64,000 bases of DNA from a bacterium (GTDB lineage: Bacteria > Bacillota > Clostridia > Oscillospirales > Acutalibacteraceae), in the NCBI GenBank assembly GCA_020624805.1, contig JAHKVW010000017.1:6185-70184 (forward strand), in the 5' to 3' direction. Positions 13,854 through 38,707 of this stretch are shown here, piece by piece (the first letter of the stretch is position 1; each line of letters opens with the position of its first letter). The position numbers and the translations under genes are program-made. The notes below the pieces were generated by a model. That model was not told where the DNA came from. It saw nothing but the letters and a program-made list of their open reading frames with translations, and did not search any database.

Positions 13854-13943
13854 GTCATTGCGAAGCCGCAAAGCGGCTGTGGCAATCTCAACCGATTATC
13901 AAACAGGGAGATTCCCACGTCGGCAAAGCCTCCTCGGAATGAC
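13854..13943. repeat. two REP-like family 1 units in inverted arrangement
   Basis: GTCATTGCGAAG...GTGGCAATCTC and GAGATTCCCACGTCG...CTCGGAATGAC. Confidence 0.8.
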
Positions 13944-15448: not shown

Positions 15449-18400
15449 TTATCTCGAGTGGATCAGCTGATAGAAGGCTTCGATCTTGGCGCTGTCCTCG
15501 TCAAGACCGCTTCTCTTGCCTTCCTCGATCGCTTCGGTGATGATCCTGTAATCGTGGGGGATGATCCTTTTGAACTTCGGCAGATACGCGTCAAAGTCAC
15601 TGAGGATCCGTTTGCCCTTTTCGGAGCCTGTCGCCTCCACGTGCTCCGTGATCAGCGCTCTGAGCTCGTCGATATCCTTCTGCTCACTCAGCTCGGAGCA
15701 CTCGACCAGTTCCTTGTTCAGCCGCTTGTACAGGTGATGATGCTCGTCCAGTACATAGGCGACGCCGCCCGACATACCGGCGGCAAAATTCTTGCCCGTA
15801 CTGCCGAGGATGACGACCTTGCCGCCTGTCATATATTCGCATCCATGCTCGCCGACGCCCTCGACGACGGCTGTCGCGCCAGAATTGCGCACACAAAAGC
15901 GCTCGCCCGCGATACCGTTGATAAAAGCCTTGCCGCTTGTCGCGCCATAGAGAGCGACGTTGCCTATAATGATGTTCTCCTCCGCTTTGAAGCGGCTGTT
16001 TTCATCGGGATAAACGATCAGCTTACCGCCCGATAAGCCTTTTCCGAAATAGTCGTTGCTGTCGCCTCTGAGCGCCATCGTCAAGCCCTTGGGGATAAAC
16101 GCGCCGAAGCTCTGACCGCCCGAGCCGTTACAGATGATCCGATAGGTATCGTCATTGAGATCCTCGCCGTACTTTTTGGTGATCTCGGAGCCGAACGCCG
16201 TACCGAGGGAGCGATCGGTATTGCGGACGTCGATCTCGATCTTTGCCGGCTTACCCTCGCGGAATGCCTTTTTGAACCCTTTGATGATGACCTTTTCATC
16301 CAATGTATCGGAGAGCTTGAAGTCATATGGGTCTTTCTCATCATATCTGATCGATGATTCATCAAGATGATGGTCGAGAATCGCGGACACATCGATCTGC
16401 TGTTCGCGTTCAGAGAGATCGGCTCGCTTCTTCAAAAGATCCTTTCGACCGATCAGCTCGTCGATGGTACGCACGCCCAGCCGCGCCATATACTCGCGCA
16501 GTTCTTCGGCGATGAAGCGCATGAAATTGACGACATATTCCGGCTTACCCATGAAGCGTTTTCTCAGTTCGGGATTCTGCGTCGCCACACCGAAGGGGCA
16601 GGTGTCGAGGTTGCAGACGCGCATCATCGCGCAGCCTAAGGTAACCAGCGGCGCGGTCGCAAAGCCGAATTCCTCCGCGCCGAGGATCGCCGCGATCGCG
16701 ACGTCACGGCCTGTCATCAGCTTGCCGTCCGTTTCGATGACGACCTTGTTCCTCAGCCCGTTGAGCAGGAGCGTTTGGTGCGCTTCGGCAAGACCGAGCT
16801 CCCACGGCAGTCCCGCGTTATAGATCGAGCTGCGCGGCGCGGCGCCTGTACCGCCGTCATAGCCTGAGATCAGGATGACCTGCGCTCCTGCCTTCGCTAC
16901 GCCCGCGGCTACGGTTCCTACGCCCGCTTCGGATACGAGCTTGACGGAGATACGCGCCTTTTTATTCGCGCTTTTCAGATCGTAGATCAGCTGAGCCAGA
17001 TCCTCGATCGAATAGATATCGTGATGCGGCGGCGGTGAGATCAGCGACACGCCCGGGGTGGAATGGCGGGTTTTCGCGATCCACGGATAGACCTTCATCC
17101 CCGGCAGATGGCCGCCCTCGCCGGGCTTTGCGCCCTGTGCCATTTTGATCTGGAGCTCGTCGGCGGAGTTGAGATAGGTCGAGGTCACGCCGAAGCGGCC
17201 GGACGCCACCTGTTTGATCGCCGAGCAACGGTTGTGCTTGGTGCCCTTTGTCGCTAACCGCTCGGGGCTTTCACCGCCCTCGCCGGAGTTGCTTTTGCCG
17301 CCCAGCATATTCATCGCGAGCGCCAGCGCTTCATGCGCCTCCTGAGAGATCGAGCCGTAGGACATGGCGCCCGTTTTGAAGCGCTTCACGATACTGTCGA
17401 CGCTTTCGACCTCGTCGAGCGGGATCGGCGAATCGACGTAATTGAAATCAAATAATCCGCGGATACTGACCGGCTGCATTTCTTCATCAAGCATACGGGA
17501 GTATTCCTTGAACAGTCTGTAATCGCTGTTCCTTGTCGCCGCCTGTAACGCGTGGATCGTCTGCGGATTGTAGAGGTGCTGTTCCTTACCGCTGCGGCTC
17601 TTATGACTGCCGCGCGATTCAAGTTCCTCGCTCACCGCCAGTCCGAGCGGATCGAATGCCGCCGAATGCAGACGGTCGACATTCCGCTCGATATCCTCGA
17701 GCGTGATACCGCCGATACGGCTGACCGTACCGGTAAAGTATTCATCGATCAGCTTGTCGCTCAGTCCCAGCGCCTCAAAGTTCTTGGAGCCCTGATAGGA
17801 TTGCAGGGTCGAGATACCCATTTTGGACGCGATCTTGACGATACCGTGCAGCACGGCGTTGTTGTAATCCTCGATCGCCGCGTAGTAATCCTTGTCCAGC
17901 AAATCGTCGTGGATCAGTTCATGGATCGTTTCGAGCGCCAGATACGGATTGACCGCGCTCGCGCCGTAGGCGAGCAGGGTCGCGAAGTGATGCACCTCTC
18001 TCGGTTCACCGCTTTCGAGCACGATGGAGAGGGCGGTTCTGCGCTTTGTGGCAACCAAATGCTGGTGCAGCGCCGATACCGCGAGCAGTGACGGGATCGC
18101 CAGATGATTTTCATCCACGCCCCTGTCGGAAAGGATCAGGATATTCGCGCCCGCGGCGCTTGCCTTATCCGCCTCGACATACAGCCGCCTGATCGCCTTG
18201 CTCAGCTTGGTGTTCTTATAATACAGGATAGGGATCTCCGCGACCTTGAAGCCCGGCAGGTTCATCCTTTTTAGCTTGAGCAGTCCGGTGGAGGTCAGGA
18301 TCGGGTTGACGACCTTGATGACCTTGCAGTTATCCGGCTTTTCCTCCAGCAGATTGCCGTCCTTACCGATATAGATCGTGGTAGAGGTGACGATCTTTTC

Positions 18401-19978
18401 ACGCAGCGCGTCGATCGGCGGATTGGTCACCTGCGCGAAATTCTGCTTGAAATAATCGAACAGCGGCTGCGGTTGGTCGGACAAGACCGCGAGCGGCTTA
18501 TCAGATCCCATCGCGGCGATCGGCTCCGCGCCGTTCTGCGCCATCGGCAGGATGGACGTCATCACATCCTCATAGGTGTAGCCGAACGCCTTTTGCAGGC
18601 GGCGGCGTTCCTCTCTGTGATGCTCCTCCACCTTTGCGTTAGGCACCTTCAGGTATTTCAGACGCGTCAGGTTGCTGTCGAGCCATTCACCGTAGGGCGC
18701 TTTTGAGGCGTAATGCCGCTTGACTTCTTCATCGCTTAATAATATTCCCTGTACGGTGTCCACGAGCAGCATCTTGCCCGGATGGAGGCGCTCCTTCTTC
18801 ACGATTCTTTCAGAGGGGATCGGAAGGGCTCCGACCTCAGAGCTCAGGATCAGATGATCGTCGTCGGTGATATAGTATCTGGACGGCCTCAGACCGTTTC
18901 TGTCGAGCACCGCGCCCATCATATCGCCGTCGGAGAACAGGATCGACGCGGGGCCGTCCCACGGCTCCATCATCGTGGCGTAGTACTGATAAAAATCGCG
19001 TTCCTTCTGCGAGATCGCGTCGTTGTGATCCCACGGTTCGGGAATGGTGATCATCACGGCGAGCGGCAGATCCATTCCGCTCATCACCAAAAATTCCAAG
19101 GTATTATCCAGCCGCGCGGAATCCGAGCCGTCGGGGTTCACGACCGGCAGCACCTTATCCATATCACCCATCAGGTATTGCGACGCCATGTTTTCTTCAC
19201 GCGCGAGCATCTTATCGCTGTTGCCGCGGATGGTGTTGATCTCGCCGTTATGCACGATCATGCGGTTGGGATGCGCCTTCTGCCAGCTCGGAAATGTGTT
19301 GGTCGAGAAGCGCGAGTGTACCAGCGCGATCGCGCTCTCATAATCTTCATCCTCTAAATCGAGGTAAAACCGCCTGAGATCGCCGACGAGGAACATGCCT
19401 TTGTACACGATCGTTCTCGATGACAGTGACACGACATAAGTATCCTCGTTGCTCTGTTCAAAGGATCGCCGTACCACATACAGCTTGCGGTCAAAATCGA
19501 TCCCGCGCTTGATATCCTGCGGGCGGTTAATGAAGCACTGCTCGATATCAGGCATACACGCGAGCGCTTTGCTGCCGATCGCGTTCGGATCACAGGGAAC
19601 TTCACGCCAGCCCAAAACGGATAAGCCTTCTTTTTCGGCGATGATCTCAAACATCTTCTTTGCCTGATTGCGTCTGAGCTCATTTTGCGGGAAGAAGAAC
19701 ATTCCGACCGCGTAATCACGCTTTGCGCCGATCGGGATATTCTGTTCCTTTGCGGCTTTTTGAAAAAAGCGATCCGAGATCTGGAGCAGGATGCCGACGC
19801 CGTCGCCTGTCTTGCCCTCTGCGTCCTTACCGGCACGGTGCTCTAAGGTCTCGACGATCGTCAGGGCGTTGTCGACCGTTGTATGGGATGGGTTGCCCTT
19901 GATATTGACGACTGCGCCGATACCGCAGTTATCGTGTTCAAATTCACTTCGATAGAGCGAGTTTTCGTTTGTTTTCAT
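15449..19978 (-). CDS. gltB: glutamate synthase large subunit
   Basis: 1509 aa; EHDNCGIG N-terminal Cys, HSRFSTNT, IKMAQGAKPGEGG, CAMMRVCNLDTC. Confidence 0.97.
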   Translation of the reverse strand: MKTNENSLYRSEFEHDNCGIGAVVNIKGNPSHTTVDNALTIVETLEHRAGKDAEGKTGDGVGILLQISDRFFQKAAKEQNIPIGAKRDYAVGMFFFPQNELRRNQAKKMFEIIAEKEGLSVLGWREVPCDPNAIGSKALACMPDIEQCFINRPQDIKRGIDFDRKLYVVRRSFEQSNEDTYVVSLSSRTIVYKGMFLVGDLRRFYLDLEDEDYESAIALVHSRFSTNTFPSWQKAHPNRMIVHNGEINTIRGNSDKMLAREENMASQYLMGDMDKVLPVVNPDGSDSARLDNTLEFLVMSGMDLPLAVMITIPEPWDHNDAISQKERDFYQYYATMMEPWDGPASILFSDGDMMGAVLDRNGLRPSRYYITDDDHLILSSEVGALPIPSERIVKKERLHPGKMLLVDTVQGILLSDEEVKRHYASKAPYGEWLDSNLTRLKYLKVPNAKVEEHHREERRRLQKAFGYTYEDVMTSILPMAQNGAEPIAAMGSDKPLAVLSDQPQPLFDYFKQNFAQVTNPPIDALREKIVTSTTIYIGKDGNLLEEKPDNCKVIKVVNPILTSTGLLKLKRMNLPGFKVAEIPILYYKNTKLSKAIRRLYVEADKASAAGANILILSDRGVDENHLAIPSLLAVSALHQHLVATKRRTALSIVLESGEPREVHHFATLLAYGASAVNPYLALETIHELIHDDLLDKDYYAAIEDYNNAVLHGIVKIASKMGISTLQSYQGSKNFEALGLSDKLIDEYFTGTVSRIGGITLEDIERNVDRLHSAAFDPLGLAVSEELESRGSHKSRSGKEQHLYNPQTIHALQAATRNSDYRLFKEYSRMLDEEMQPVSIRGLFDFNYVDSPIPLDEVESVDSIVKRFKTGAMSYGSISQEAHEALALAMNMLGGKSNSGEGGESPERLATKGTKHNRCSAIKQVASGRFGVTSTYLNSADELQIKMAQGAKPGEGGHLPGMKVYPWIAKTRHSTPGVSLISPPPHHDIYSIEDLAQLIYDLKSANKKARISVKLVSEAGVGTVAAGVAKAGAQVILISGYDGGTGAAPRSSIYNAGLPWELGLAEAHQTLLLNGLRNKVVIETDGKLMTGRDVAIAAILGAEEFGFATAPLVTLGCAMMRVCNLDTCPFGVATQNPELRKRFMGKPEYVVNFMRFIAEELREYMARLGVRTIDELIGRKDLLKKRADLSEREQQIDVSAILDHHLDESSIRYDEKDPYDFKLSDTLDEKVIIKGFKKAFREGKPAKIEIDVRNTDRSLGTAFGSEITKKYGEDLNDDTYRIICNGSGGQSFGAFIPKGLTMALRGDSNDYFGKGLSGGKLIVYPDENSRFKAEENIIIGNVALYGATSGKAFINGIAGERFCVRNSGATAVVEGVGEHGCEYMTGGKVVILGSTGKNFAAGMSGGVAYVLDEHHHLYKRLNKELVECSELSEQKDIDELRALITEHVEATGSEKGKRILSDFDAYLPKFKRIIPHDYRIITEAIEEGKRSGLDEDSAKIEAFYQLIHSR

Positions 19979-20007: not shown

Positions 20008-20154
20008 GTCATTGCGAGGAGTCGGTAAATTTGACTCCGCGGCAATCTCAACCGAATATAAATAGTTAATGCGAAAAAAGACGCACGCGTCCAATCTCAA
20101 CCGAATCAAAGGTTGAGATTCCCACGTCGGAGCGTTGCTCCTCCTCGGAATGAC
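20008..20154. repeat. two or three REP-like family 1 units upstream of gltB
   Basis: GTCATTGCGAGG...GCGGCAATCTCAACC and GGTTGAGATTCCCACGTCGG...CTCGGAATGAC; a third partial ...CCAATCTCAACC. Confidence 0.8.
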
Positions 20155-24748: not shown

Positions 24749-26113
<1,365 letters not shown>

Positions 26114-26129
26114 TTATATGTTGCACTGC

Positions 26130-26227
26130 AAAAAAAACGCAAAAAAATAAAGGCACCTCGGACTATGTGTCCGAGACGCCTTTGTCTCAACAGCACGAAT
26201 TATACGCCCAAATTGTTCGTTTGTCAA
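26130..26227 (-). promoter_or_regulatory. gdhA promoter plus ANTAR-type hairpin/terminator
   Basis: TTGACA-N17-TATAAT, then GAGAC[AAAGGC]GTCTC inside the terminator 5' arm (...GGTGCCTTT ATTTTTTT). Confidence 0.85.
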
Positions 26228-26328: not shown

Positions 26329-26420
26329 TTGACATCAAAAAATAATTATGTTAAAGTGTTAGCGGAACAAAGGCGTTCATTTGAGGCAGTATTCTGCGCT
26401 GCCCCAAATGGCGCTTTTTT
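26329..26420 (+). promoter_or_regulatory. GS-like 1 promoter plus ANTAR-type attenuator, copy 1
   Basis: TTGACA-N17-TAAAGT; GAAC[AAAGGC]GTTC; terminator ending GGCGCTTTTTT. Confidence 0.85.
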
Positions 26421-26430
26421 ATCTTTCATA

Positions 26431-26474
26431 ATCATTGCGAGGGCTCGGCACGATTGTCGGCTCGCGGCAATCAC
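26431..26474. repeat. REP-like family 1 unit between the tandem attenuators
   Basis: ATCATTGCGAGG...CGCGGCAATCAC. Confidence 0.75.
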
Positions 26475-26489
26475 AACTGATCTCGATAT

Positions 26490-26539
26490 GAACAAAGGCG
26501 TTCATCTAGACTGTTCCGGGTCTAAGTGTCGCCTTTTTT
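26490..26539 (+). promoter_or_regulatory. ANTAR-type attenuator, copy 2, before GS-like 1
   Basis: GAAC[AAAGGC]GTTC; terminator ending TCGCCTTTTTT. Confidence 0.85.
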
Positions 26540-26591
26540 ATATTTATATGTTTTTATATGGCATTACCTCTGAAAAGGAGCGAGTGAGAGC

Positions 26592-27800
26592 ATGAATCAT
26601 ACAGAGCAGGAATTGATGAAGCAGATCGAAGAAGAGGACGTCAAATTCATCCGTCTTTCCTTCTGTGATATCTACGGCGTTCAAAAGAATATTTCGATCC
26701 AGCGCAGCGAACTGCCCAGAGCCTTTGAGAAAGGCATCGGGATCGACGCTTCCTACATCAACGGCTTCGGCGGCGATTACGGCAAGGATATCTGGCTCCA
26801 TCCCGAGACGGATACGATCACGGTTCTGCCGTGGAGACCCGAGCACGGCAAGGTCGTCAGGATGTTCTGTACGCTGACCTACGAGGACGGTACTCCTGTC
26901 GAGACCGACACCCGCGCGGTATTAAAGGACGCTGTCAAATACGCCCAATCAAAGGGCTATCGCTTCCACTTCAAGTCCGAGCTGCAGTTCTATCTGTTCA
27001 AGACGGACGGCGACTCGGAGAATACCGGCGTTCCCTATGACAACGCAGGGTATATGGACATTGCGCCTCTCGACAAGGGCGAGAACGTGCGCCGTGAGAT
27101 CTGTCTGACGCTCGAACAGATGGGGATCGATCCCGAAAGCTCCCACCATGAGGCAGGACCCGGACAGAACGAGATCGACTTCCGCTATTCCGATCCGATC
27201 ACTGCCGCGGACAATACCGTGACTTTTCTCAGCGTCGTGCGCACTATCGCCGCACGCAACGGGCTTTATGCCGACTTCTCCCCAAAGCCGATCAAGGATA
27301 AGACCGGCTCGGCGCTGCATATTTCCGTATCGACAAAGGCAAAATCAGGAGAGGATGTGACCGACGCCGCGATCGCGGGCATCCTGCATAATATCGCCGG
27401 TATGACGGTATTCCTCAACCCGAAGGCGGAATCCTTTGAGCGCTTCGGCAAGCACAAAGCTCCGAAGTATATCACATGGTCACAGACGAATCGTTCTCAG
27501 CTTGTATTCTCGCGGCATACCGAAAGCGGCAGCCGCTGTGCTCAGCTGCGTTCACCCGACCCTCAGGCGAATCCGTATCTGGCATACGCCCTGATGATCT
27601 ACGCGATCATGGACGGTATCGAAAACGGCAGAACGTTACCGCAGCCCACGGATGAAAACGTCTTACAGCTCATCACCGATTCAGCAGAACCCCAAAAGCT
27701 GCCCGACAGTCTGGAGAAGGCGCGTATCGAAGCAACAAATTCACCGCTTGTACAGCGGTTCATCCCCTCGGCAGTGACCATGGTTTACTGTGCAGATTAA
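26592..27800 (+). CDS. glutamine synthetase type I-like protein, catalytically degenerate (paralog 1)
   Basis: GS fold motifs (VKFIRL.FCDI.G, HHEAGPGQNEIDF, RSPDP.ANPY), but ELQF, HKAP, LVFS and QLRS replace EPEF, YEAP, IRIP and EVRS; 402 aa. Confidence 0.85.
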   Translation: MNHTEQELMKQIEEEDVKFIRLSFCDIYGVQKNISIQRSELPRAFEKGIGIDASYINGFGGDYGKDIWLHPETDTITVLPWRPEHGKVVRMFCTLTYEDGTPVETDTRAVLKDAVKYAQSKGYRFHFKSELQFYLFKTDGDSENTGVPYDNAGYMDIAPLDKGENVRREICLTLEQMGIDPESSHHEAGPGQNEIDFRYSDPITAADNTVTFLSVVRTIAARNGLYADFSPKPIKDKTGSALHISVSTKAKSGEDVTDAAIAGILHNIAGMTVFLNPKAESFERFGKHKAPKYITWSQTNRSQLVFSRHTESGSRCAQLRSPDPQANPYLAYALMIYAIMDGIENGRTLPQPTDENVLQLITDSAEPQKLPDSLEKARIEATNSPLVQRFIPSAVTMVYCAD

Positions 27801-27874
27801 CAGCGTAGTAACCACTGCATTTTACCATATTATTGTTTACCTGATAACAAAAATCATCGAAAGGAGAGCGCACC

Positions 27875-28456
27875 TTGGACTTTACAGAGCACCGGTACAG
27901 AATACTGATCGTATCCTCGGACGACAGGTTCGGCAGAGAAGTCAGCACTCTCCTGCAGGGCGACCAATTTCAGCAGGATTTTTCCCGCAGCGCGTCGGAC
28001 GCCCGCTGTAAGCTGCTCGAAAACCAATACGATTTTGTGATCGTCAACGCGCCGTTGAGGGATGAGTTCGGCTCCCGTCTGTGTATCGATATCAGCCGCA
28101 ACAACGGCACCATCGCCGCGATCTTTGCGGCAACCGATACCTATGACGAGATCTACGCGAAGGTGTCCGTGCACGGCGTTTTCGCGCTCCATAAGCCGAC
28201 CTCCAAAACACTGGTCTCTCAGGCGGTGTCGCTGATGGTGTGCGCCAGAGAACGTCTGCGGTCGTTGGAAAAGAAGGTCGGCAACACCGAGAGCAAGCTC
28301 GACGAGATCCGCATCGTCAACAAAGCCAAATGGCTGTTGATCGATCAGGAAGGGCTGAGCGAGGCGGACGCGCATAAGTATATCGAGAAGTCCGCGATGG
28401 ATGCCGGTATCACCAAACGGCTTGCCGCTCAAATGATCATTGACAAATACCTGTAA
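27875..28456 (+). CDS. ANTAR antiterminator with pseudo-receiver domain (paralog 1)
   Basis: C-terminal RIVNKAKWLLI...SEADAHKYIEKSAMD ANTAR domain; phospho-Asp position is Asn (FVIVNAP). Confidence 0.9.
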   Translation: MDFTEHRYRILIVSSDDRFGREVSTLLQGDQFQQDFSRSASDARCKLLENQYDFVIVNAPLRDEFGSRLCIDISRNNGTIAAIFAATDTYDEIYAKVSVHGVFALHKPTSKTLVSQAVSLMVCARERLRSLEKKVGNTESKLDEIRIVNKAKWLLIDQEGLSEADAHKYIEKSAMDAGITKRLAAQMIIDKYL

Positions 28457-28497
28457 TAGGCGTATTTTCTAAGAGAGAATACGTCTTTGTCTTTTTC
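28453..28497 (+). terminator. terminator between ANTAR1 and glmS resembling a degenerate ANTAR element
   Basis: AGGCGTATTTTCT/AGAGAATACGTCT stem plus TTTTT; 3' arm ACGTCTTTGTC is complementary to GACAAAGACGT. Confidence 0.6.
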
Positions 28498-28535
28498 GGG
28501 CAGTTGACATATTATATTAGTAAAGGAGAACACTT

Positions 28536-30362
28536 ATGTGCGGAATAGTAGGATATGTCGGACCGCGTGACTGCGCGGATGTGCTGGTATCGGCTCTGAC
28601 AAAGCTGGAATATCGCGGATATGACTCCGCCGGTATCGCCGTGTTTGAAAACGGAAAGATCGAAGTCGCCAAAACCAAGGGCAGACTGGCTGATCTGACC
28701 GAGAAGATGGAGAAAGAAGGCAAGCCGCAGGGTCACGCCGGAATCGGCCATACGCGCTGGGCGACCCACGGCGAGCCGCGCGATATCAACTCTCACCCCC
28801 ACTCGGGGCGCAGGGTCACCATCGTCCATAACGGCATCATCGAGAACTACAAACAGCTCAAGCAATTCCTGATCGAAAACGACCGCACCGAGTTCCTCTC
28901 CGATACCGACACCGAGGTCGTGGCGCAGCTGCTTGACTTCTACTATGAGGGCGATCCCATTCGCTGTATCCGCCGTACGCTCCACGAGCTGCGCGGTTCC
29001 TTTGCGCTGGGGATCGTTTTCGCCGACCGTCCCGAGACCGTTTACGCGGTACGGTGTGAAAGCCCGCTGATCGTCGGTCAGGGTCAGGACGAGGTGTTCA
29101 TCGCCTCCGATGTGCCCGCCATCATCAAATATACCAAGGAATACTATCTGCTGGAGCAGGGCGAGATCGCGATCCTGAAAAACGGCAGTGTAGATTTTTG
29201 CACCCTGCACGGCAGAAAACTGAAGAAGGAACTGCTCTTTGCCGACTGGGATGAGGACAGCGCCGAAAAGGGCGGTTATCCGCACTTTATGCTCAAGGAG
29301 ATCCATGAGCAGCCCACCGCCGTCAAAACGACGGTCACGCCGCGCATCGAGGACGGTCTGCCCGATCTGTCCGAGTGCGGCATCATTTTCGGCACGCTGA
29401 GAAATCTGAAAAACATCTTCATCGTCGCCTGCGGTACCGCTATGCACGCCGGTATGGTGGGCAAATATGTCATCGAAAAGCTCGCGCGTGTACCCGTAAC
29501 AGTCGATATCGCCTCCGAGTTCCGCTATCGCGATCCGCTGTTGACGCACGACGACCTGATCATCATTATCAGCCAGAGCGGTGAGACCGCCGACAGTAAG
29601 GCAGTACTGAGTCTCGCCAAGTCGCGCGGCGCCAAAACGCTCGCGATCGTCAACGTCAAGGGCAGCTCCATTGCCAGAGAAGCCGATATGGTCATCTACA
29701 CCCACGCGGGTCCCGAGATCGCCGTCGCCTCCACCAAGGCGTATATGGTCCAGCTCGCGGTCATGTATCTGTTCGCCTTTGAAACAGCGCTCGCCAAGGG
29801 TAAGCTCGAGGAGAAGGAGTGCCGCAGACTGACTGCCGCGCTGCTCAAAATGCCCGATGTGATCGAGAAAACCATCGACAAGGTCATGGATATGTGCCAG
29901 TATGTTTCCACCAAGCTGATCACCGCCGACAGCCTGCTGTATATCGGCAGGGGGCTTGATTACGCGCTGTCGATGGAGGGCTCCTTAAAGCTCAAGGAGA
30001 TCAGCTATATTCATTCCGAAAGCTACGCCGCGGGTGAGCTCAAGCACGGTACGATCTCGCTGATCACCGAGGGGATGCCCGTGATCGCTGTCGCGACGCA
30101 GAACACCCTGCTCGAAAAGACCGTCAGCAACATCAAAGAGGTCAAGGCGCGCGGCGCGATGACCATCGTGATCTGTGACGAAGAAGCGGATATCGACGCG
30201 GACGCGGTCGACTACATGATCCGCATCCCGAAGATCAATGAGACGCTGATGCCGATGGTCGCCACAGTGCCCATGCAGCTCCTCGCGTACTACACCTCGG
30301 TCAACAAAGGCAACGACGTCGATAAGCCCCGCAATCTCGCCAAATCCGTCACGGTTGAGTAA
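28536..30362 (+). CDS. glmS: glutamine--fructose-6-phosphate aminotransferase
   Basis: MCGIVG, EYRGYDSAG, GHTRWATHG, SQSGETAD, ELKHG, PRNLAKSVTVE. Confidence 0.97.
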   Translation: MCGIVGYVGPRDCADVLVSALTKLEYRGYDSAGIAVFENGKIEVAKTKGRLADLTEKMEKEGKPQGHAGIGHTRWATHGEPRDINSHPHSGRRVTIVHNGIIENYKQLKQFLIENDRTEFLSDTDTEVVAQLLDFYYEGDPIRCIRRTLHELRGSFALGIVFADRPETVYAVRCESPLIVGQGQDEVFIASDVPAIIKYTKEYYLLEQGEIAILKNGSVDFCTLHGRKLKKELLFADWDEDSAEKGGYPHFMLKEIHEQPTAVKTTVTPRIEDGLPDLSECGIIFGTLRNLKNIFIVACGTAMHAGMVGKYVIEKLARVPVTVDIASEFRYRDPLLTHDDLIIIISQSGETADSKAVLSLAKSRGAKTLAIVNVKGSSIAREADMVIYTHAGPEIAVASTKAYMVQLAVMYLFAFETALAKGKLEEKECRRLTAALLKMPDVIEKTIDKVMDMCQYVSTKLITADSLLYIGRGLDYALSMEGSLKLKEISYIHSESYAAGELKHGTISLITEGMPVIAVATQNTLLEKTVSNIKEVKARGAMTIVICDEEADIDADAVDYMIRIPKINETLMPMVATVPMQLLAYYTSVNKGNDVDKPRNLAKSVTVE

Positions 30363-30556
30363 AGGCCCCCTTTCCTAAGGAGATTCCCCTGTTAGGGGAA
30401 ATGTCCGCAAAGCGGACAAAAGGGTCTGCAGCCTCCGCTGAGGAGTGCTGGCGCCGATAGGCGACTGGGGGTTGATACTTTTTAAGTCATATATTTCAAT
30501 AAAGATTGCAGGCAACCCTCCGCCCCTGCGGGGCACCTCCCTTAGAAAAGGGAGGC
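30363..30556. repeat. REP-like family 2 cluster (CCCCT...AGGGG hairpins)
   Basis: Short GC hairpins (TGTCCGCAAAGCGGACA, CCTCCCCTTAGAAAAGGGAGG) similar to 32192-32460 and 33777-33802. Confidence 0.6.
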
Positions 30557-30800
30557 AAAAAAGTACAGACCCCGTCGCAAGGCGGAGTCTGTAAACCAAA
30601 GGGGAGTGTGTGCAATTTTCTTTTGGCAATAAATAATGTTGATGAAGTATATATTGTTATAAGAAATCTCCCCTAAAGTCCGTTTTTGATCCTGATTTGA
30701 ATAGATCAAGATCACGAAAAAAGAAGGGTTTTGGGATTCCAAAACAGCAAAAAAGCGCCTTGAACCCCCTTGGGGGATTCAAGACGCCTTTGTCTTTACT
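30557..30800 (-). ncRNA. candidate ANTAR-controlled small RNA (~245 nt)
   Basis: Strong promoter plus attenuator with no RBS-led ORF downstream; two internal hairpins; ends at a hairpin plus U6 at 30557-30592. Confidence 0.5.
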
Positions 30801-30835
30801 GAGTGCATTATACGCTCCGATAACCAAATTGTCAA
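30749..30835 (-). promoter_or_regulatory. orphan promoter plus ANTAR-type attenuator
   Basis: TTGACA-N17-TATAAT; AGAC[AAAGGC]GTCT; terminator ...GGGGGTTCAAGGCGCTTTTTT. Confidence 0.85.
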
Positions 30836-30874
30836 GTGTTTTCAAAATATTTTAACGCTTTGATGTGCGAAAGA

Positions 30875-30903
30875 TTGACACGGCACGCCGATAATGATAT
30901 GAT
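30875..30903 (+). promoter_or_regulatory. sigma70 promoter of GS-like 2 (no ANTAR hairpin in the leader)
   Basis: TTGACA-N17-TATGAT. Confidence 0.65.
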
Positions 30904-30941
30904 ACAGAAGAAGATTTCACTTCTGAAAAGAGGGTGTCACC

Positions 30942-32150
30942 GTGACAACGGAAGAAAACCAGATCATGCAGTATATCGAGGAAGAGGACGTCAAGTTCAT
31001 CCGTCTTGCTTTCTGCGATATTTTCGGCGCGCAAAAGAATATCTCCGTCCAGCCCACCGAGCTGCAAAGGGCATTTGAAAGGGGCTATCCGATCGACGCT
31101 TCTTATGTGTCGGGCTTCGGCGGCGATTACGGCGTCGACGTTTGGCTGCGTCCCGAAGCGGATACCGTTTCCGTTCTCCCGTGGCGGCCGGAGCACGGCA
31201 AGGTGATCCGGATGTTCTGCGCACTGTGCTACTCAGACGGCAGACCGATCGAGGCGGATACGCGCTCTTTGTTGCGCGGCGCTGTGGAATATGCCCGCCA
31301 AAAGGGCTATCGCTTCCACTTCAAGTCCGAGATGCAGTTCTATCTTTTCAAGACCGATGAAAACGGAAACCGAACCGCTATTCCCTACGATCACGCGGGT
31401 TATATGGATATCGCGCCGCTGGATAAGGGCGAGAATATCCGCCGCGAGGTATGCCTGACGCTCGAGCAGATGGGCGTCATGCCCGAAAGCTCGCATCATG
31501 AAGCGGGACCCGGTCAGAATGAGATCGACTTCAAGTATGCTCAAGCTCTCCCTGCCGCCGATAATACAAGCACCTTTATCTCCGTCGTCCGCACGATCGC
31601 CGCGCAAAGCGGCTTGTATGCCGATTTTTCGCCGAAGCCGATCTCCGATAAGCCCGGCTCGGCGCTCCATATCCGTATGTCTGTCAAAGCAAAGGACGGC
31701 GAGGACGTCACCGAACGCGCTATCGCGGGTATCCTGAAGAACATCGCGGACATGACCATTTTTCTCAATCCGACCGAAAAATCCTTCAAGCGATTCAACA
31801 AGATGAAAGCGCCTAAATTTATCACATGGTCGGACAAAAACCGCGCTCAGCTGATTTTTGCGACCCGTACCGAGAGCGGCGGCAGATGCTTACAGCTTCG
31901 CTCTCCCGACCCCAACGCCAATCCCTATCTCGCGTTCGCGCTGATGATATACGCGGCGGTCGACGGCATCCAAAACGACTATCCGCTTTCTCCTTCGATC
32001 GATACAGAGCTGCAATACCTCTCCTCATCCGAGCAAAACGAGATAGAGCTTTTGCCCGATACTATCGTCAGGGCGCAGAACGCGGCTCTGAACAGCGACT
32101 TCATCAAGCGGTTTGTCCCCGACAGCATCATCAAAGCATATTGTAACTGA
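30942..32150 (+). CDS. glutamine synthetase type I-like protein, catalytically degenerate (paralog 2)
   Basis: Same length (402 aa) and the same substitutions as paralog 1 (EMQF, MKAP, LIFA, QLRS). Confidence 0.85.
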   Translation: MTTEENQIMQYIEEEDVKFIRLAFCDIFGAQKNISVQPTELQRAFERGYPIDASYVSGFGGDYGVDVWLRPEADTVSVLPWRPEHGKVIRMFCALCYSDGRPIEADTRSLLRGAVEYARQKGYRFHFKSEMQFYLFKTDENGNRTAIPYDHAGYMDIAPLDKGENIRREVCLTLEQMGVMPESSHHEAGPGQNEIDFKYAQALPAADNTSTFISVVRTIAAQSGLYADFSPKPISDKPGSALHIRMSVKAKDGEDVTERAIAGILKNIADMTIFLNPTEKSFKRFNKMKAPKFITWSDKNRAQLIFATRTESGGRCLQLRSPDPNANPYLAFALMIYAAVDGIQNDYPLSPSIDTELQYLSSSEQNEIELLPDTIVRAQNAALNSDFIKRFVPDSIIKAYCN

Positions 32151-32559: not shown

Positions 32560-33738
32560 TTATCTCAATAACTTTTTGATTCTCTCTACCGCTTCTACGG
32601 TGTTCTCTCTGTCGCCGAAGGAGGTCAGTCGAAAATAGCCTTTTCCCTGACTGCCGAAGCCCTCGCCGGGGGTTCCGACCACCTGCGCGTTTTCGAGAAG
32701 GTAATCGAAGAACTCCCAGCTTCCCATGCCTTTGGGGCACTCCAGCCAGATATACGGTGAGTTTTTACCGCCCGTATAGAATATCCCCAGCTCGTCGAGC
32801 GCCGCGGAGATAATCCGCGCGTTCTCTTTATAGTATTCGATATTTGCTTTGAATTCTTTTTGTCCCTCTTCGGAGAATACGGCGGCCGCGGCGCACTGCA
32901 CGGGATAGGACACGCCGTTGAATTTGGTCGCCTGACGGCGGTACCAAAGGGCATGGATATTGTGACCGTCGCGGACAAGCTCCTTCGGGATCACCGTATA
33001 GCCGCAGCGCACACCGGTAAAGCCCGCTGTCTTTGACAGAGAGCAGAATTCGATCGCACATTCTCTTGCCCCGTCGATCGCAAAGATCGAGCGCGGACAA
33101 TCATCCTCGATAAACGCCTCATATGCCGCGTCGTACAGGATGACCGCGTCATTTTTAATGGCGTAATCCACCCACGCCTTGAGCTGATCGGTACTGTAAG
33201 CCGCGCCGGTGGGATTATTCGGCGAGCAAAGATAGATGATATCCGCATGGATGCTCTCGTCGGGCATGGGCAGAAAACGATTCTCCCGCGTACCCGGCGC
33301 GTATACGATCTTCCTGCCCGCCATGATGTTCGCGTCGACATAGACGGGATAGACGGGATCGGGCACCATCACGGTGTTATCGGCGCCGAAAATATCGCCG
33401 ATATTGCCCGTGTCGGACTTTGCGCCGTCGCTGATAAAGACCTCATTCGCTTCGATCTTAACGCCGAAGCCGTCATAGTATCGGGCGACCGCCTCACGTA
33501 CAAAATCATAGCCCTCATATTCGGGATAACCCTTGAAGGTCTCTTTGAAGCTCAGCTCTCCCGCGCCGACCTTCATCGCCTGTACGGCAGTGCGCGGCAG
33601 CGGGAGCGTAACGTCGCCGATGCCGAGCCGGATGAGCTTTTGCTCAGGATGCGCGGCGGCATACGCCGAAGTCTTTTTCGCTATCTCGGCAAAGAGATAG
33701 TTTGGGACTAAATTATCAAAATTTCGGTTGATCTTCAT
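32560..33738 (-). CDS. dapL: LL-diaminopimelate aminotransferase
   Basis: NYLFAEIAKK, LGIGDVT, SDGAKSD, CSPNNPTG, SLSKTAGFTGVRCG, FRLTSFG. Confidence 0.95.
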   Translation of the reverse strand: MKINRNFDNLVPNYLFAEIAKKTSAYAAAHPEQKLIRLGIGDVTLPLPRTAVQAMKVGAGELSFKETFKGYPEYEGYDFVREAVARYYDGFGVKIEANEVFISDGAKSDTGNIGDIFGADNTVMVPDPVYPVYVDANIMAGRKIVYAPGTRENRFLPMPDESIHADIIYLCSPNNPTGAAYSTDQLKAWVDYAIKNDAVILYDAAYEAFIEDDCPRSIFAIDGARECAIEFCSLSKTAGFTGVRCGYTVIPKELVRDGHNIHALWYRRQATKFNGVSYPVQCAAAAVFSEEGQKEFKANIEYYKENARIISAALDELGIFYTGGKNSPYIWLECPKGMGSWEFFDYLLENAQVVGTPGEGFGSQGKGYFRLTSFGDRENTVEAVERIKKLLR

Positions 33739-33800: not shown

Positions 33801-34382
33801 CTATAGATATCTGTCGATCACGATCTGAGCCGCCTGACGCTTGGTGATCCCCGCCGCCATCGCCTGCTGTTCGATATACCGATGAGCATCGATCTCGCTC
33901 ATATCCTCATTATCGATCAAAAACCATTTTGCTTTGTTGACGATGCGGATCTCCTGCAGTTTATCCTCGGCTTTGCCCGCCTTTTTCTCTACGGTTCTCA
34001 ACATCTCGCGCGCGGAGATCAAGAGAGATAACGCCTGTATGATCGTCTGCTGTGAGGACGGCTTGCGAATGACAAAAACGCCGTAAGACACGGTTCTTTG
34101 CATGATGTCCTCGTACACATCCGAGGGCGCGAAGATGACCGCCAGCGTGCCGACATGATCCGTCACGTCGATGCACAGGTGCGAGCCGAACTCGTCGCTG
34201 AGCGGCGCGTTGACGATCACAAAATCATAGCTCTTTTCCGTCAGAACGCGTCTTGCCTCGCCCGCGTTCGTCACATGATCGGTGTGAAAATGTCTTTCGC
34301 GCAGAAGGGAGCTTATCTCTTGCATGAACCTTTCAGACAGCGAGACCACCAACGCATGATAGCGAACCTGTTCTAAAGTCAT
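33801..34382 (-). CDS. ANTAR antiterminator with pseudo-receiver domain (paralog 2)
   Basis: YDFVIVNAPL (Asn at the phospho-site); RIVNKAKWFLI...SEIDAHRYIEQQAM. Confidence 0.9.
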   Translation of the reverse strand: MTLEQVRYHALVVSLSERFMQEISSLLRERHFHTDHVTNAGEARRVLTEKSYDFVIVNAPLSDEFGSHLCIDVTDHVGTLAVIFAPSDVYEDIMQRTVSYGVFVIRKPSSQQTIIQALSLLISAREMLRTVEKKAGKAEDKLQEIRIVNKAKWFLIDNEDMSEIDAHRYIEQQAMAAGITKRQAAQIVIDRYL

Positions 34383-34431
34383 ATTCTCCCTTCACCTCTT
34401 TTCGATCCGTACACGGAAGTACGATCAACGT

Positions 34432-34516
34432 AAAAAGGCGCTATTCGGGCACAAGCTCCCAAATAAACGCCTTTGTTTATCGAGGCTATTATAGCATTAT
34501 TCGCATATTATGTCAA
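34432..34516 (-). promoter_or_regulatory. ANTAR2 promoter plus ANTAR-type attenuator (autoregulation)
   Basis: TTGACA-N17-TATAAT; AAAC[AAAGGC]GTTT; terminator ...CCCGAATAGCGCCTTTTT. Confidence 0.85.
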
Positions 34517-34570
34517 TCGTTTAAAACGTCAAAGCGTTAAATTTTTTTGATAATTTTTTCACGATTACCC

Positions 34571-34663
34571 TTGACAAATGAAAATTCGCGTCGTATAATG
34601 CGTGCTGTAAAGACAAAGGCGTTTTGAACCTGCGTGGTTTGAAACGCCTTTGTCTATTTCTTT
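34571..34663 (+). promoter_or_regulatory. glnN promoter plus ANTAR-type attenuator
   Basis: TTGACA-N17-TATAAT; AGAC[AAAGGC]GTTT; 3' arm AAACGCCTTTGTCT then ATTTCTTT. Confidence 0.88.
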
Positions 34664-34682
34664 ACGAAAAGGAGAAGGTATT

Positions 34683-36776
34683 ATGGCAAACGTAGCAGAA
34701 TATTTCGGAAGTCTGGTATTTGACGACAAGACGATGAAAGAGCGGCTGGATCCCAAAATCTACAAGCAGCTCCGCAAAACGATCGACGACGGCGAGCAGC
34801 TGAATATTCAGGTAGCGAACGCCGTAGCCGCCGCGTTAAAGGAATGGGCGGTAGAAAAGGGCGCGACCCACTATACCCACTGGTTCCAACCGCTGACCGG
34901 TATCACCGCCGAAAAGCATGACAGCTTTATCACTCCCTCGCCCGACGGCAGAGTGATCATGGAATTCTCCGGCAAGGAGCTGATCAAGGGCGAGCCTGAC
35001 GCGTCCTCGTTCCCCTCGGGCGGTCTGCGCGCGACCTTTGAAGCAAGAGGCTATACCGCGTGGGACCCCACCTCCTACGCTTTCATCAAGGGCAAGACCC
35101 TTTGTATCCCCACCGCGTTCGCTTCCTACAGCGCCGACGCGCTGGATAAAAAGACGCCGCTTTTGCGCTCCATGCAGGCGCTGAACATTCAGGCAACGCG
35201 CGTCTTGAAGCTCTTCGGCAACGAGGACGTCAAGCGTGTCGTCACCTCTGTCGGACCCGAGCAGGAATACTTTTTGGTTCCCAAGGAGCTGTACGCGAAG
35301 CGCAAGGATCTGATCTATACGGGACGAACCCTCTTCGGCGCGCGTCCTCCCAAGGGTCAGGAGCTCGACGATCACTATTTCGGTACCATCAAGCCGCGTG
35401 TGCTCGCCTATATGGAGGATCTCAACGACGAGCTGTGGAAGCTCGGCATCCTCGCGAAAACCCAGCATAACGAGGTCGCGCCCGCTCAGCATGAGCTGGC
35501 TCCCATCTACACGACGACCAATGTCGCGACCGATCACAACCAGCTGACGATGGAGATCATGCAGAAGGTCGCGGAGCGTCACGGTCTGGTATGTCTGCTG
35601 CACGAAAAGCCCTTTAAGGGCGTGAACGGCTCGGGCAAGCACAACAACTGGTCGATCGGCACGGATACCGGCGTCAACCTGCTCACTCCCGGTGAGACGC
35701 CGTTTGAGAACGTCCAGTTCCTGCTGTTCCTCGTAGCGGTCATCAAGGCGGTCGACGAGTATCAGGATCTGCTGAGACTGTCCGTCGCGACCGCCGGTAA
35801 CGATCACCGTCTGGGCGCGAATGAAGCGCCGCCCGCCGTCATCTCCATCTTCCTCGGCGACGAGCTGACTGCCGTTCTGGACGCGATCGAGAACGATACC
35901 GAGTATGAGGGCACCAAGAAGAAATATATGAAGCTCGGCGTTGACGTTCTGCCGCGTTTCAGACGCGACACCACCGACCGCAACCGTACCTCGCCCTTTG
36001 CGTTCACGGGCAACAAGTTCGAGTTCCGTATGCTCGGTTCCTCCAACTCCATCGCCTGCTGCAATATGATGCTCAACTCCGCTGTCGCGGAAGTCTTGAA
36101 GCAGTTTGCGGATGTGCTGGAGAATTCCGAGAACTTTGAAAATGATGTTCACAACCTGATCCGCAAGACGATCAAGGATCACAAGCGGATCATCTTCAAC
36201 GGCAACGGTTATGACGACGCTTGGATCGAAGAAGCCGAAAAGCGCGGACTCTCCAATCTCAGAACCACCGCCGACGCGATGCCGCATCTGCTGGATGAAA
36301 AGAACGTCGCGATGCTGACCTCTCATAAGGTGTTCACCAAAGCGGAGCTGGAAAGCCGCATGGAGATCATGTTGGAAAACTACGTCAAGCAGGTCAACAT
36401 CGAAGCACTGACGATGGTGGATATGACCGGCAAACAGATCATCCCCGCGATCGAAACCTATCTGATGAAGCTTTTGAAGAATGTTTCTATGAAGAAGGCG
36501 ATCTCGCCCGATATCAGCTGCGCCTATGAGACCGCGAACATCGAGAAGCTCTCCGCTGCCTGTGACGAGATGAGCGCCAACGCGGGTATCCTCGAGCGCT
36601 TGGCGGAGCACCTCGCTCATATCGATGATATCGTGGAGCAGGCGAACTTCGTCCGCGACGAGCTCCTGCCGCAGATGGATACGCTGCGCAGCTATGCCGA
36701 CGCCGCGGAAGCGGTCGTTGACGCGGAGATCTGGCCGCTGCCGACCTACGGCGAGCTGCTCTTCGGCGTAAGATAA
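34683..36776 (+). CDS. glnN: glutamine synthetase type III
   Basis: [75 protein letters not shown]; catalytic motifs intact. Confidence 0.96.
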
Positions 36777-36779
36777 ATA

Positions 36780-36825
36780 GGTTGAGATTGCCACAGCATT
36801 GACAGATCAATGCTTCGCAATGACG
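36780..36825. repeat. REP-like family 1 unit
   Basis: GGTTGAGATTGCCACAGC...GCTTCGCAATGAC. Confidence 0.8.
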
Positions 36826-36835
36826 ATTGATAAAA

Positions 36836-36876
36836 GTACAAAGGCGTACTCTGCTTTCGCGGGGTACGCCTTTATT
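36836..36876 (+). promoter_or_regulatory. intercistronic ANTAR-type attenuator before amt
   Basis: GTAC[AAAGGC]GTAC inside the AAAGGCGTACTCTGC/GCGGGGTACGCCTTT stem. Confidence 0.82.
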
Positions 36877-36900
36877 AGTGGTCAGTGGTTAGTGGTCAGT
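36877..36900 (+). repeat. heptamer tandem repeat AGTGGTY x3
   Basis: AGTGGTC AGTGGTT AGTGGTC AGT. Confidence 0.8.
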
Positions 36901-36979
36901 TAACCGATGACCGAAACAAAATAAACAATGCTAATGACCGGCAATATGCAGCCGGTTACTCAATTTGGAAGGTGAAACT

Positions 36980-38707
36980 ATGACTATGACAGTAGAATTC
37001 TGGTTCCTGATCGGAGCCGCGCTGGTGTTCTGGATGCAGGCAGGCTTTGCCATGGTAGAGGCGGGCTTTACCCGCGCCAAGAACGCCGGAAACATCATCA
37101 TGAAAAACCTGATGGACTTTTGTATCGGCACGGTCGTGTTCGCTCTCTTGGGCTACACGATCATGATGGGCGAGGATACCCTGTTCGGACTGATCGGTAT
37201 CCCGAACATGGACTTGTTCGGTCACTTCAAGGAGTTCATCGCGTCTCCCGGGAACGGCGACTTTACCGCCGCTTCCACATTCGTATTCAACCTCGTTTTC
37301 TGCGCCACCACCGCGACCATCGTATCCGGCGCGATGGCGGAAAGAACGAAATTCTCCGCTTACTGTATCTACTCGGGCGTTATCTCGCTGTTCATCTACC
37401 CGATCGAAGCGCACTGGATCTGGGGCGGCGGCTGGCTCTCTCAGCTGGGCTTCCATGACTACGCAGGTTCCTGCGCGATCCACATGGTCGGCGGCATCGC
37501 GGCATTGATCGGCGCGGCGGTGCTCGGACCCCGTCTCGGAAAATACGAGCGTGATGAAAACGGCAAGGTCGTCAAGGTCAACGCATTCCCCGGTCACAAC
37601 ATCGTCATCGGCGCGTTGGGCGTATTCATCCTGTGGCTCGGTTGGTACGGCTTCAACGGCGCGGCGGCGACTACTCCGAGTGAGCTTGCTTCTATCTTTT
37701 TGACTACCACCATCGCTCCCGCGGTCGCCACCTGCGTCACGATGGCATTCACATGGATTAAAAACGGCAAGCCCGATGTATCCATGTGCCTGAACGCATC
37801 CTTGGCAGGCTTGGTCGGAATCACCGCAGGCTGCGACGCGCTTGACGCGATCGGCGCGACCGTCGTCGGCGTTGTCAGCGGTATTCTGGTTGTCGTCGTG
37901 GTCGAGGTGCTTGACATGAAGCTGCACATCGACGATCCCGTCGGCGCGGTCGGCGTTCACATGGCAAACGGTATCTGGGGCACGATCGCGGTCGGTCTGC
38001 TCGCGAATCCCGACGCTCCCGCAGGGCTCAGCGGCTTGCTGTATACAGGAGATTTCCGTCAGCTCGGCTTACAGCTCTTAGGCTTCGGCTCCGTTGCGGT
38101 ATACGCGGCGATCATGATGGTCATCACCTTTGTGATCATCAAAAAGACGATCGGACTGCGCGCAACGGCTGAGGAAGAGATCATGGGTCTCGACATCACC
38201 GAGCACGGCCTGCCGTCGGCATACGCGGGCTTTGCGGCGACATCGGAGGACTATTCCGTATACGGCGAGGACGTCGCCGTCGTCGCGGGTGAAACGCCCG
38301 TGGCAGAAGCTGTCGAGGTCAAGAGCGTTCCGTCCTTTGATAACGGCGAGCAACGGTTCACAAAGATCGAGATCATCTGTAAGGAAGCTCGGTTTGAAAA
38401 GCTCAAGAGAGCGATGGCACAACTCGGCATCACCGGCATGACCGTTACCCATGTCATGGGCTACGGCTCACAGAAGGGCAAGCCCGAGTATTACCGCGGT
38501 GTTTTGGTCGATACCAACCTGCTGCCGAAGATCCAGGTCGAGATGGTCGTATCCGCGATCCCTGTCCGCGACGTGATCGAAGCGGCAAAGAGAGCGCTCT
38601 ATACCGGACACATCGGCGACGGCAAGATCTTCGTTTACAACGTAGATAATATTGTCAAGGTGCGCACCGGAGAAGAAGGCTATGCCGCCTTGCAGGATGT
38701 GGAATAA
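36980..38707 (+). CDS. amtB: ammonium transporter fused to a C-terminal P-II (GlnK-like) domain
   Basis: MQAGFAMVEAG, HWIWGGGWL, DYAGSCAIH, WLGWYGFNG, DDPVGAVGVH; P-II GITGMTV...YRG...TGHIGDGKIFV...VRTGE. Confidence 0.95.
   Translation: MTMTVEFWFLIGAALVFWMQAGFAMVEAGFTRAKNAGNIIMKNLMDFCIGTVVFALLGYTIMMGEDTLFGLIGIPNMDLFGHFKEFIASPGNGDFTAASTFVFNLVFCATTATIVSGAMAERTKFSAYCIYSGVISLFIYPIEAHWIWGGGWLSQLGFHDYAGSCAIHMVGGIAALIGAAVLGPRLGKYERDENGKVVKVNAFPGHNIVIGALGVFILWLGWYGFNGAAATTPSELASIFLTTTIAPAVATCVTMAFTWIKNGKPDVSMCLNASLAGLVGITAGCDALDAIGATVVGVVSGILVVVVVEVLDMKLHIDDPVGAVGVHMANGIWGTIAVGLLANPDAPAGLSGLLYTGDFRQLGLQLLGFGSVAVYAAIMMVITFVIIKKTIGLRATAEEEIMGLDITEHGLPSAYAGFAATSEDYSVYGEDVAVVAGETPVAEAVEVKSVPSFDNGEQRFTKIEIICKEARFEKLKRAMAQLGITGMTVTHVMGYGSQKGKPEYYRGVLVDTNLLPKIQVEMVVSAIPVRDVIEAAKRALYTGHIGDGKIFVYNVDNIVKVRTGEEGYAALQDVE

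Follow-up and report, generated by a model that had tools for sequence, protein, structure and literature searches.

Regulators of the ANTAR family are common and have links to nitrogen metabolism. To our knowledge, their described outputs are operons, and the only RNA partner known for them, EutX/Rli55, is a sponge. Here we analyzed a 64,000-nucleotide (nt) stretch of a genome of the Acutalibacteraceae (contig JAHKVW010000017.1, positions 6,185 to 70,184 of the forward strand; referred to as the window), in which the minus strand of the 579-nt spacer between glmS and the second of two glutamine synthetase (GS)-like genes (GSL2) carries an orphan element, an ANTAR-type attenuator with no protein gene behind it (30557-30835). 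An initial annotation had read this element as the source of a probable small RNA (sRNA) and had left three options for it: a nitrogen-induced trans-acting sRNA, an ANTAR decoy, or the relic of a deleted gene. Judged against related genomes, in which a 3' block but no open reading frame (ORF) is conserved, the first of the three is favoured. We lean towards a clade-specific, ANTAR-gated non-coding RNA gene on the minus strand that is controlled by nitrogen and acts in trans.

The consensus ANTAR site is a hexanucleotide loop that carries A at its first and G at its fourth position, and ANTAR regulons of nitrogen genes are known (PMC3369931, PMC8934654). The orphan leader resembles the ANTAR leader attenuators of EutV/eutP in Enterococcus faecalis, NasR/nasF and AmiR/amiE in having an A1/G4 hexaloop on a short stem, in the mutual exclusion of this hairpin and an intrinsic terminator, and in the presence of ANTAR response-regulator genes nearby. 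It also resembles the predicted ANTAR nitrogen regulons of Desulfotomaculum and others, in which nitrogen-assimilation genes are controlled (PMC3369931, PMC8934654). Unlike these attenuators, which have a P1-P2 pair of hairpins, the orphan leader has a single hexaloop at its very 5' end, the loop itself is part of the 5' arm of the terminator, and no protein gene follows, the predicted output being a structured non-coding RNA. One hexaloop on its own has been put forward as the smallest unit that ANTAR proteins bind (PMC8934654).

The closest ANTAR-linked RNA is EutX/Rli55 of Enterococcus and Listeria, likewise a stand-alone non-coding RNA in an ANTAR circuit with an ANTAR-type hairpin. Such RNAs can be encoded in any orientation relative to their regulon, and EutX is gated by an adenosylcobalamin (AdoCbl) riboswitch and sequesters EutV through a site outside any terminator (PMC5821096). 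In contrast, the predicted ANTAR site of the orphan element would gate synthesis of the RNA body and be buried after release, and the two RNAs have no sequence similarity. Rfam searches of the window and of 30300-31000 detected no riboswitch in the element, and the features of an EutX-type sponge were not found.

NsiR4 of cyanobacteria, NrsZ and Methanosarcina sRNA154 are nitrogen-stress sRNAs; RNAs of this kind are controlled at initiation (by NtcA, NtrC or NrpR) or released by processing, and their targets are known. GlnZ is a nitrogen-stress sRNA from the 3' untranslated region (UTR) of glnA in enterobacteria (PMC9731577). Like them, the orphan element adjoins GS-type genes, and we propose that it is expressed with the nitrogen regulon; unlike them, it would be controlled through an antiterminator protein, and its sequence and structure are unrelated. 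The element also shares with RsaE/RoxS (RF01820) a Firmicutes host, a length of about 110 nt, a C-rich CUCCCC motif and a terminal intrinsic terminator. RsaE aligned over its full length to 30562-30672, with a score of 17.7 bits against a gathering threshold of 79 (E = 2.6). Membership in this family was rejected on that score, and the C-rich motif is here predicted to be paired rather than in a loop. No Rfam family reached its gathering threshold anywhere in the window, and a search of 30300-31000 with E up to 10 gave best scores of no more than 22.4 bits, none of them credible.

Promoter and hexaloop attenuator

The unit starts with a sigma-70-type promoter on the minus strand (30807-30835), in which TTGACA (30835-30830) and TATAAT (30812-30807) are separated by a 17-nt spacer and match the consensus at 12 of 12 positions. 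Perfect TTGACA-N17-TATAAT sites occurred six times in 64 kb, with 0 expected by chance, and the hexamers of this one were invariant in eight related sequences. From the position of the promoter, transcription is predicted to start at about 30800. Four of the six perfect promoters directly precede hexaloop attenuators (26199-26227, 30807-30835, 34488-34516 and 34571-34599), and control of the ANTAR-hexaloop regulon seems to lie almost wholly at termination.

About 4 nt past the predicted start begins the stem of a hexaloop hairpin, AAGAC[AAAGGC]GUCUU (30781-30796, minus strand), which has the A1 and G4 of the consensus loop and is a putative ANTAR binding site. The AAAGGC loop with its closing AC/GU was common to seven leaders of the window, namely those of gdhA, the first GS-like gene (GSL1, two in tandem), the orphan unit, the second ANTAR regulator gene (ANTAR2) and glnN, together with one between glnN and amt, and each hairpin lies directly before or within an intrinsic terminator. 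The stems vary in sequence yet pair (GAGAC/GUCUC, AAGAC/GUCUU, AUAAAC/GUUUAU, GAAC/GUUC, AUGAAC/GUUCAU and AGUAC/GUACU). Across the seven leaders 88% of stem cells were paired compared with 36-50% in slid controls, and four of the six stem pairs were changed on both sides, giving a score that only 1 of 500 shuffles reached. Among all fetched loci, at least three further flanking pairs surrounded 22 of the 67 distinct CAAAGGCG sites, where about 3.5 would be expected at 0.375 per pair by our own estimate.

The hairpin leads into an attenuator (30749-30791, minus strand) whose terminator of 19 pairs (30791-30751) is followed by a U-run; the attenuator was conserved in eight sequences. The consensus promoter and attenuator of the initial annotation were thus both recovered. 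So was the close resemblance to the glnN leader, to which the orphan leader is identical letter for letter over CGTATAATGC and over GTAAAGACAAAGGCGT. Hexaloop and 3' arm of the hairpin together make up the terminator's 5' arm, so that hairpin and terminator are mutually exclusive; once the hairpin is captured, all that would be left of the terminator is a shorter upper hairpin lying 7 nt from the U-tract. We infer that the orphan leader is a single-hexaloop ANTAR-type attenuator, probably bound by either of the two REC-ANTAR proteins of the cluster.

The fold energies bear on the decoy option, in which the short terminated RNA, or else the complete transcript, would expose the hexaloop and soak up the regulator, the way EutX/Rli55 acts on EutV. 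The leader has the same hexaloop hairpin as the regulated genes together with a perfect promoter, and ANTAR-sponging sRNAs exist (PMC5821096). However, the terminator fold of the released orphan RNA, which buries the hexaloop, was favoured by 13.8 kcal/mol over the best fold obtained when the loop was kept unpaired; the range of this advantage, computed with no protein, was 7-23 kcal/mol. Moreover, the binding site of EutX is not associated with a terminator (PMC5821096), and a decoy would leave the conserved 3' block unexplained. The decoy option was weakened accordingly, and we now regard it as very improbable.

GSL1 is preceded by two tandem hexaloop attenuators (cores at 26367 and 26492; region 26330-26560, plus strand), and a further attenuator lies between glnN and the amt-PII fusion gene (36830-36880, plus strand). 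This arrangement suggests graded or inter-cistronic control.

The conserved 3' RNA block

Behind the attenuator lies a variable spacer (30684-30748, minus strand) with two hairpins, GTTTTGG/CCAAAAC (30745-30728) and GATCTTGAT/ATCAGGATC (30713-30688). The initial annotation had made these hairpins features of the read-through RNA. They are indeed present in the predicted fold, but they are not conserved: the 60-220 nt behind the attenuator differ among the related genomes, L004 and L006 have a replaced spacer that could not be aligned there, and in L007 the spacer is interrupted by a miniature inverted-repeat transposable element (MITE), a small transposon-like insertion. This turnover indicates that the two spacer hairpins are dispensable. 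Spacer variation changes the unit length, which is about 245 nt in the window genome and ranges over 248-404 nt among the relatives. The MITE-like element, roughly 158 nt long and bounded by terminal inverted repeats, was found at 3600-3757 of L007 (the spacer) and at about 195-370 of L005 (the divergent promoter region).

Conservation restarts 12 nt before the segment GGGGAG and runs to the U-tract, defining a block of about 125 nt (30557-30683, minus strand) with 89% mean column identity in alignment A2. GGGGAG (30673-30668), described as exposed in the initial annotation, is instead predicted to pair with CUCCCC (30606-30601) in all homologues and so to form the outer stem. The inner stem consists of AUUUCUU (30667-30661) and AAGAAAAU (30622-30615), the internal loop is UUGCACACA, and the AU-rich stretch noted earlier is present and is better described as the invariant 20-nt apical loop of the block structure, CAAUAUAUACUUCAUCAACA (30656-30637). 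The expected terminator closes the unit of about 245 nt, with a hairpin at 30593-30564 (11 pairs, 6 of them G-C) and U6 at 30562-30557. Besides the apical loop, the segments CGGACUUUAGGGGAGA, UUAUUGCCA and UUGCACACACUCCCCUUUGGUUU were invariant, and loop and stems were unchanged in seven genomes and also in L080.

The identity of the block to the window was 86-98%; for glmS and GSL2, third codon positions gave 74-92%. Of the 33 pairs in the consensus structure, one showed a compensatory change (U-A to A-U in the inner stem of L004), so the body structure is weakly supported by covariation. The 248-nt minus-strand RNA folded at -87.7 kcal/mol, with z = -8.4 against shuffles. A riboswitch-like reading of block and terminator was also considered and rejected, as inspection found no competing pairing longer than 4 bp.

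We compared the window with six related genomes (L002, L003, L004, L006, L007 and L014), whose GSL2 identity was 91-99%; the closest genomes are metagenome-assembled genomes of uncultured rumen "Ruminococcus"/Clostridia, with GSL2 identity up to 99%. All six keep the gene order GSL1, ANTAR1, glmS, spacer, GSL2, aminotransferase, ANTAR2 and glnN. Promoter, hexaloop hairpin, terminator and 3' block were conserved in 6 of 6, and no protein gene was found at the orphan position in these relatives. Attenuator and block always occurred together, in the same order and orientation, and no conserved promoter lies directly upstream of the block. When a covariance model of the block was run on the window and 83 loci, its only matches were seven orthologues and one metagenome contig, with no paralogue or copy near 71 other GS-like loci; a pattern scan of metagenomes gave five matches, of which one was real. 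Both GSL2 and the RNA are missing from L017, which is more distantly related and has only one GS-like gene. This narrow spread, together with the absence from L017 and from the 71 GS-like loci, makes the RNA look recently evolved and clade-specific.

The divergent control region between the orphan unit and GSL2 (30735-30945, 210 nt) and the one that separates ANTAR2 from glnN (34380-34665) are paralogues in inverted orientation. The paralogy covers both promoters and a shared upstream element; the orphan unit matches the glnN side, and the GSL2 side has lost the attenuator that ANTAR2 has. The divergent partner of the orphan unit (30852-30903, plus strand) comprises this upstream element, TTAACGCTTTGATG (30852-30865), and the GSL2 promoter, which runs from TTGACA at 30875 to TATGAT at 30903 and scored 11 of 12 in the promoter scan. 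In the GSL2 and ANTAR2 promoters alike, the -35 hexamer is preceded at about 10 nt by an element TTAACGCTTTGA(C/T)G (30852-30865 and 34520-34545). The ANTAR2/glnN copy is a partial palindrome, and the element may be bound by another DNA-binding regulator. An origin of the block as an inverted copy of a GS-like 5' end was rejected, since local alignment was no better than with shuffles.

As the initial annotation had stated, no downstream ORF with a plausible ribosome-binding site was found, and no ORF on either strand was conserved across the seven genomes, as frame, length or presence differed. This leaves little room for the explanation that the locus encodes a small protein, either the 66-aa TTG ORF (30742-30542, minus strand) or a plus-strand ORF of 16-23 aa starting at GTG 30608 ('MC..VDEVYIV'). 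The plus-strand ORF was open in 7 of 7 genomes and lies behind AAAGGGGAG, and L004 has an in-frame ATG 8 nt past this motif. Yet only 1 nt separates GGGGAG from its GTG, the genomes differ in where it stops, and its middle part falls into different frames from genome to genome although the nucleotides are conserved. The minus-strand ORF was interrupted in L014, L003, L006 and L004, with net +1 and +2 indels in the alignment, found in two relatives; a 41-aa ORF starting within the attenuator was likewise not kept in relatives. We therefore think a small protein highly unlikely.

The strand preference argues further against the plus-strand ORF. A hairpin followed by U6 is present on the minus strand only. 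In the minus sense 231 of 231 stem cells paired, with 23 G·U pairs among them, compared with 208 in the plus sense, a count biased to the minus sense by the structure having been predicted on it; in the unbiased comparison the consensus energy was -36.5 kcal/mol for minus and -30.4 for plus, the difference lying mainly in the terminator. Variants at 30586-30588 in metagenome contigs also preserve pairing in the minus sense only. From these alignments and folds we conclude that the block is a non-coding element of the minus strand.

Proposed mode of action and its rivals

In the mechanism that we propose, the consensus promoter would be constitutive and start transcription at about 30800, and the first 50 nt would form one of two structures. 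If the long terminator forms, a product of about 52 nt would be released. If one of the ANTAR regulators (encoded at 27875-28456 or 33801-34382) captures the nascent hexaloop hairpin, termination at 30749 would be prevented and RNA polymerase would read on, crossing the fast-evolving spacer into the 3' module (30683-30557) and ending at its strong terminator. The RNA would most likely act in trans through the invariant 20-nt apical loop. Since the orphan leader is a paralogue of the glnN leader, the nitrogen signal that would govern glnN, amt-PII, gdhA and the GS-like/ANTAR genes is expected to govern the RNA as well.

Transcription was followed in unstranded Logan assembly contigs, from eight metatranscriptome runs retrieved with the region itself and four RNA runs retrieved via GSL2. 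The block was covered in 7 of the 8 runs chosen for the region. One contig of 189 nt (X40) spans 30601-30788 and joins block, spacer and attenuator, ending 12 nt short of the predicted start, and DNA runs covered the whole region evenly, promoter gap included. Such contig evidence fits a small RNA that is conditionally made or poorly captured, without proving one.

Targets were searched inside the window by exact complementarity and RNAduplex. The best site, at codons 3-8 of gdhA, had 13 of 14 complementary bases, and GSL1 ranked third. An equal or better match to gdhA also occurs in relatives lacking the RNA, which makes this site uninformative as evidence of co-evolution, and duplex folding with the whole RNA body was discarded because it gave meaningless long-loop structures.

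A number of results weigh against a trans-acting, ANTAR-gated RNA. No in-window target was significant, the gdhA site at -13.4 kcal/mol being equalled by 36 of 200 shuffled seeds. The coverage of the block was of low depth (2-14x), came from unstranded data and was seen in runs picked with the same sequence; in the four RNA runs retrieved via GSL2 no block coverage was found, though GSL2 and glmS were covered. The promoter gap, presumed silent, is partly crossed by three RNA contigs, and several contigs extend beyond the 3' terminator. Between attenuator and block, the spacer hairpin at 30745-30728 is weakly terminator-like, and the spacer of L007 holds the 158-nt MITE. A second hexaloop forming a P1/P2 pair was sought in the window leaders and none was found, the remaining leader being terminator with non-hexaloop tops. 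Finally, a single compensatory pair stands behind the body structure, the homologues being too alike, and the element occurs only in seven species-level genomes and one metagenome contig.

Several of these results could be accounted for by a relic. On this explanation the emergence of the second GS-like/ANTAR pair involved an inverted duplication of the ANTAR2/glnN control region, leaving a glnN-type promoter and attenuator that point at nothing; the 3' block would persist only as a terminator that shields glmS from antisense transcription, and by closeness of the genomes. The inverted paralogy of the two control regions, the narrow distribution with L017 lacking both GSL2 and the RNA, the near absence of covariation, the lack of a target and the four metatranscriptomes that cover the GS-like gene and not the block are all in line with it. 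However, the spacer was wholly replaced in L004 and L006 while the block kept its invariant 20-nt loop and its two stems, features that a terminator can do without. The block is also more conserved than third codon positions, and the perfect promoter and attenuator were retained in all eight sequences. This weakens the relic, which we consider unlikely.

Contigs crossing the 3' terminator boundary would also be expected if the RNA acted in cis as an antisense of glmS, either by pairing with a long glmS 3' UTR that extends across the block or by leaking through its own terminator, and so lowered the glutamine-consuming GlmS when ANTAR is active. No plus-strand terminator was detected from the glmS stop codon to 31000 in the window, and glmS has no glmS ribozyme upstream. 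The RNA adjoins the glmS 3' end in 7 of 7 genomes, and directly at the glmS stop in a variant without a 193-nt insert. Yet the terminator is strong (11 pairs, 6 G-C, U6), the contigs carry no strand information, and some relatives appear, when their flanks are read by eye, to have a separate hairpin and T-run between the glmS stop and the block. Simple antisense overlap would also leave the invariant apical loop unexplained. We judge this explanation improbable, a little more so than the relic.

The right-hand ends of most RNA contigs lay at 30700-30731, not at 30800. This is what an independent small RNA would give, made from its own non-consensus promoter or by processing and unrelated to the ANTAR leader; the variability of the spacer, with room for a MITE and a weak terminator, fits it too. 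But the promoter scan found no promoter-like site in 30745-30684 and nothing is conserved there, contig X40 joins 30601 to 30788, and attenuator and block invariably co-occur in constant order and orientation. An independent origin of the block is thus quite improbable in our view.

Returning to the ANTAR-gated RNA, a more far-reaching version can be offered tentatively, as one that we would sooner doubt than adopt. In this version it would be the first ANTAR antiterminator to switch on a stand-alone regulatory RNA, born by inverted duplication of the glnN control region, with the loop feeding back on nitrogen-assimilation mRNAs (candidates being the gdhA and GS-like 5' coding regions) or on the convergent glmS. 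No description of an ANTAR-gated stand-alone sRNA was found in the literature searched, a limited search that does not establish absence. If true, protein-dependent antitermination can drive trans-acting riboregulation, the ANTAR nitrogen regulon gains a riboregulator arm, and the locus is a dated example of the birth of an sRNA gene by duplication of a regulated leader. It would also be a candidate post-transcriptional layer of nitrogen control in Ruminococcus-like fibre degraders of the rumen. The leaders further add working examples of single-hexaloop ANTAR sites, which were proposed from structural work and are rarely documented in genomes.

The nitrogen-assimilation cluster

The nitrogen-assimilation cluster spans 13.9-38.7 kb of the window. 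It starts on the minus strand with gltD (13951-15435), gltB (15449-19978) and gdhA (24749-26095), followed on the plus strand by GSL1 (402 aa, 26592-27800), the REC-ANTAR regulator gene ANTAR1 (27875-28456), glmS (28536-30362) and GSL2 (402 aa, 30942-32150). An LL-diaminopimelate aminotransferase gene (32560-33738) and the second REC-ANTAR regulator gene, ANTAR2 (33801-34382), lie on the minus strand, and the type III GS gene glnN (from ATG 34683 to 36776) and the Amt-PII fusion gene (36965-38707) on the plus strand. Both regulators were identified as REC-ANTAR proteins by PF03861 (E = 2.6e-13 and 4.2e-11). As glmS and GSL2 are both on the plus strand, the minus-strand transcript of the orphan element converges on the 3' end of glmS and diverges from GSL2.

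A 402-aa GS-like gene with a REC-ANTAR gene directly behind it, as at 26592-28456, is the common order in many Clostridia loci (L008-L022), and the GS-like protein may be a candidate sensor partner of the ANTAR regulator. In the clade of the window the second GS-like/ANTAR pair is split and inverted.

The gene glmS lies close behind the ANTAR1 terminator and may rely on read-through from the GSL1-ANTAR1 operon; neither a glmS ribozyme nor any other Rfam family was detected upstream of it (28457-28535). On its other side, 30370-30437 and 30506-30556 are two dispersed hairpin-rich repeats, with a metagenome depth of 118-417 compared with about 10 for the flanks and with many different flanks, RNA runs included. 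One variant genome is without 30363-30555 (193 nt), so that the glmS stop adjoins the sRNA terminator. Short repeats, GGTTGAGATTGCC...CGCAATGAC, were seen in several intergenic regions of the cluster (20040-20110, 36778-36826 and 13876-13893).

The longest invariant run of GSL2 across seven genomes comprises the ribosome-binding site and the first 50 nt of the gene (30928-30991), 65 nt compared with 33 nt for the next longest. It hints at a constraint at the RNA level, for instance a fold that involves the GTG start or a target site for regulation.

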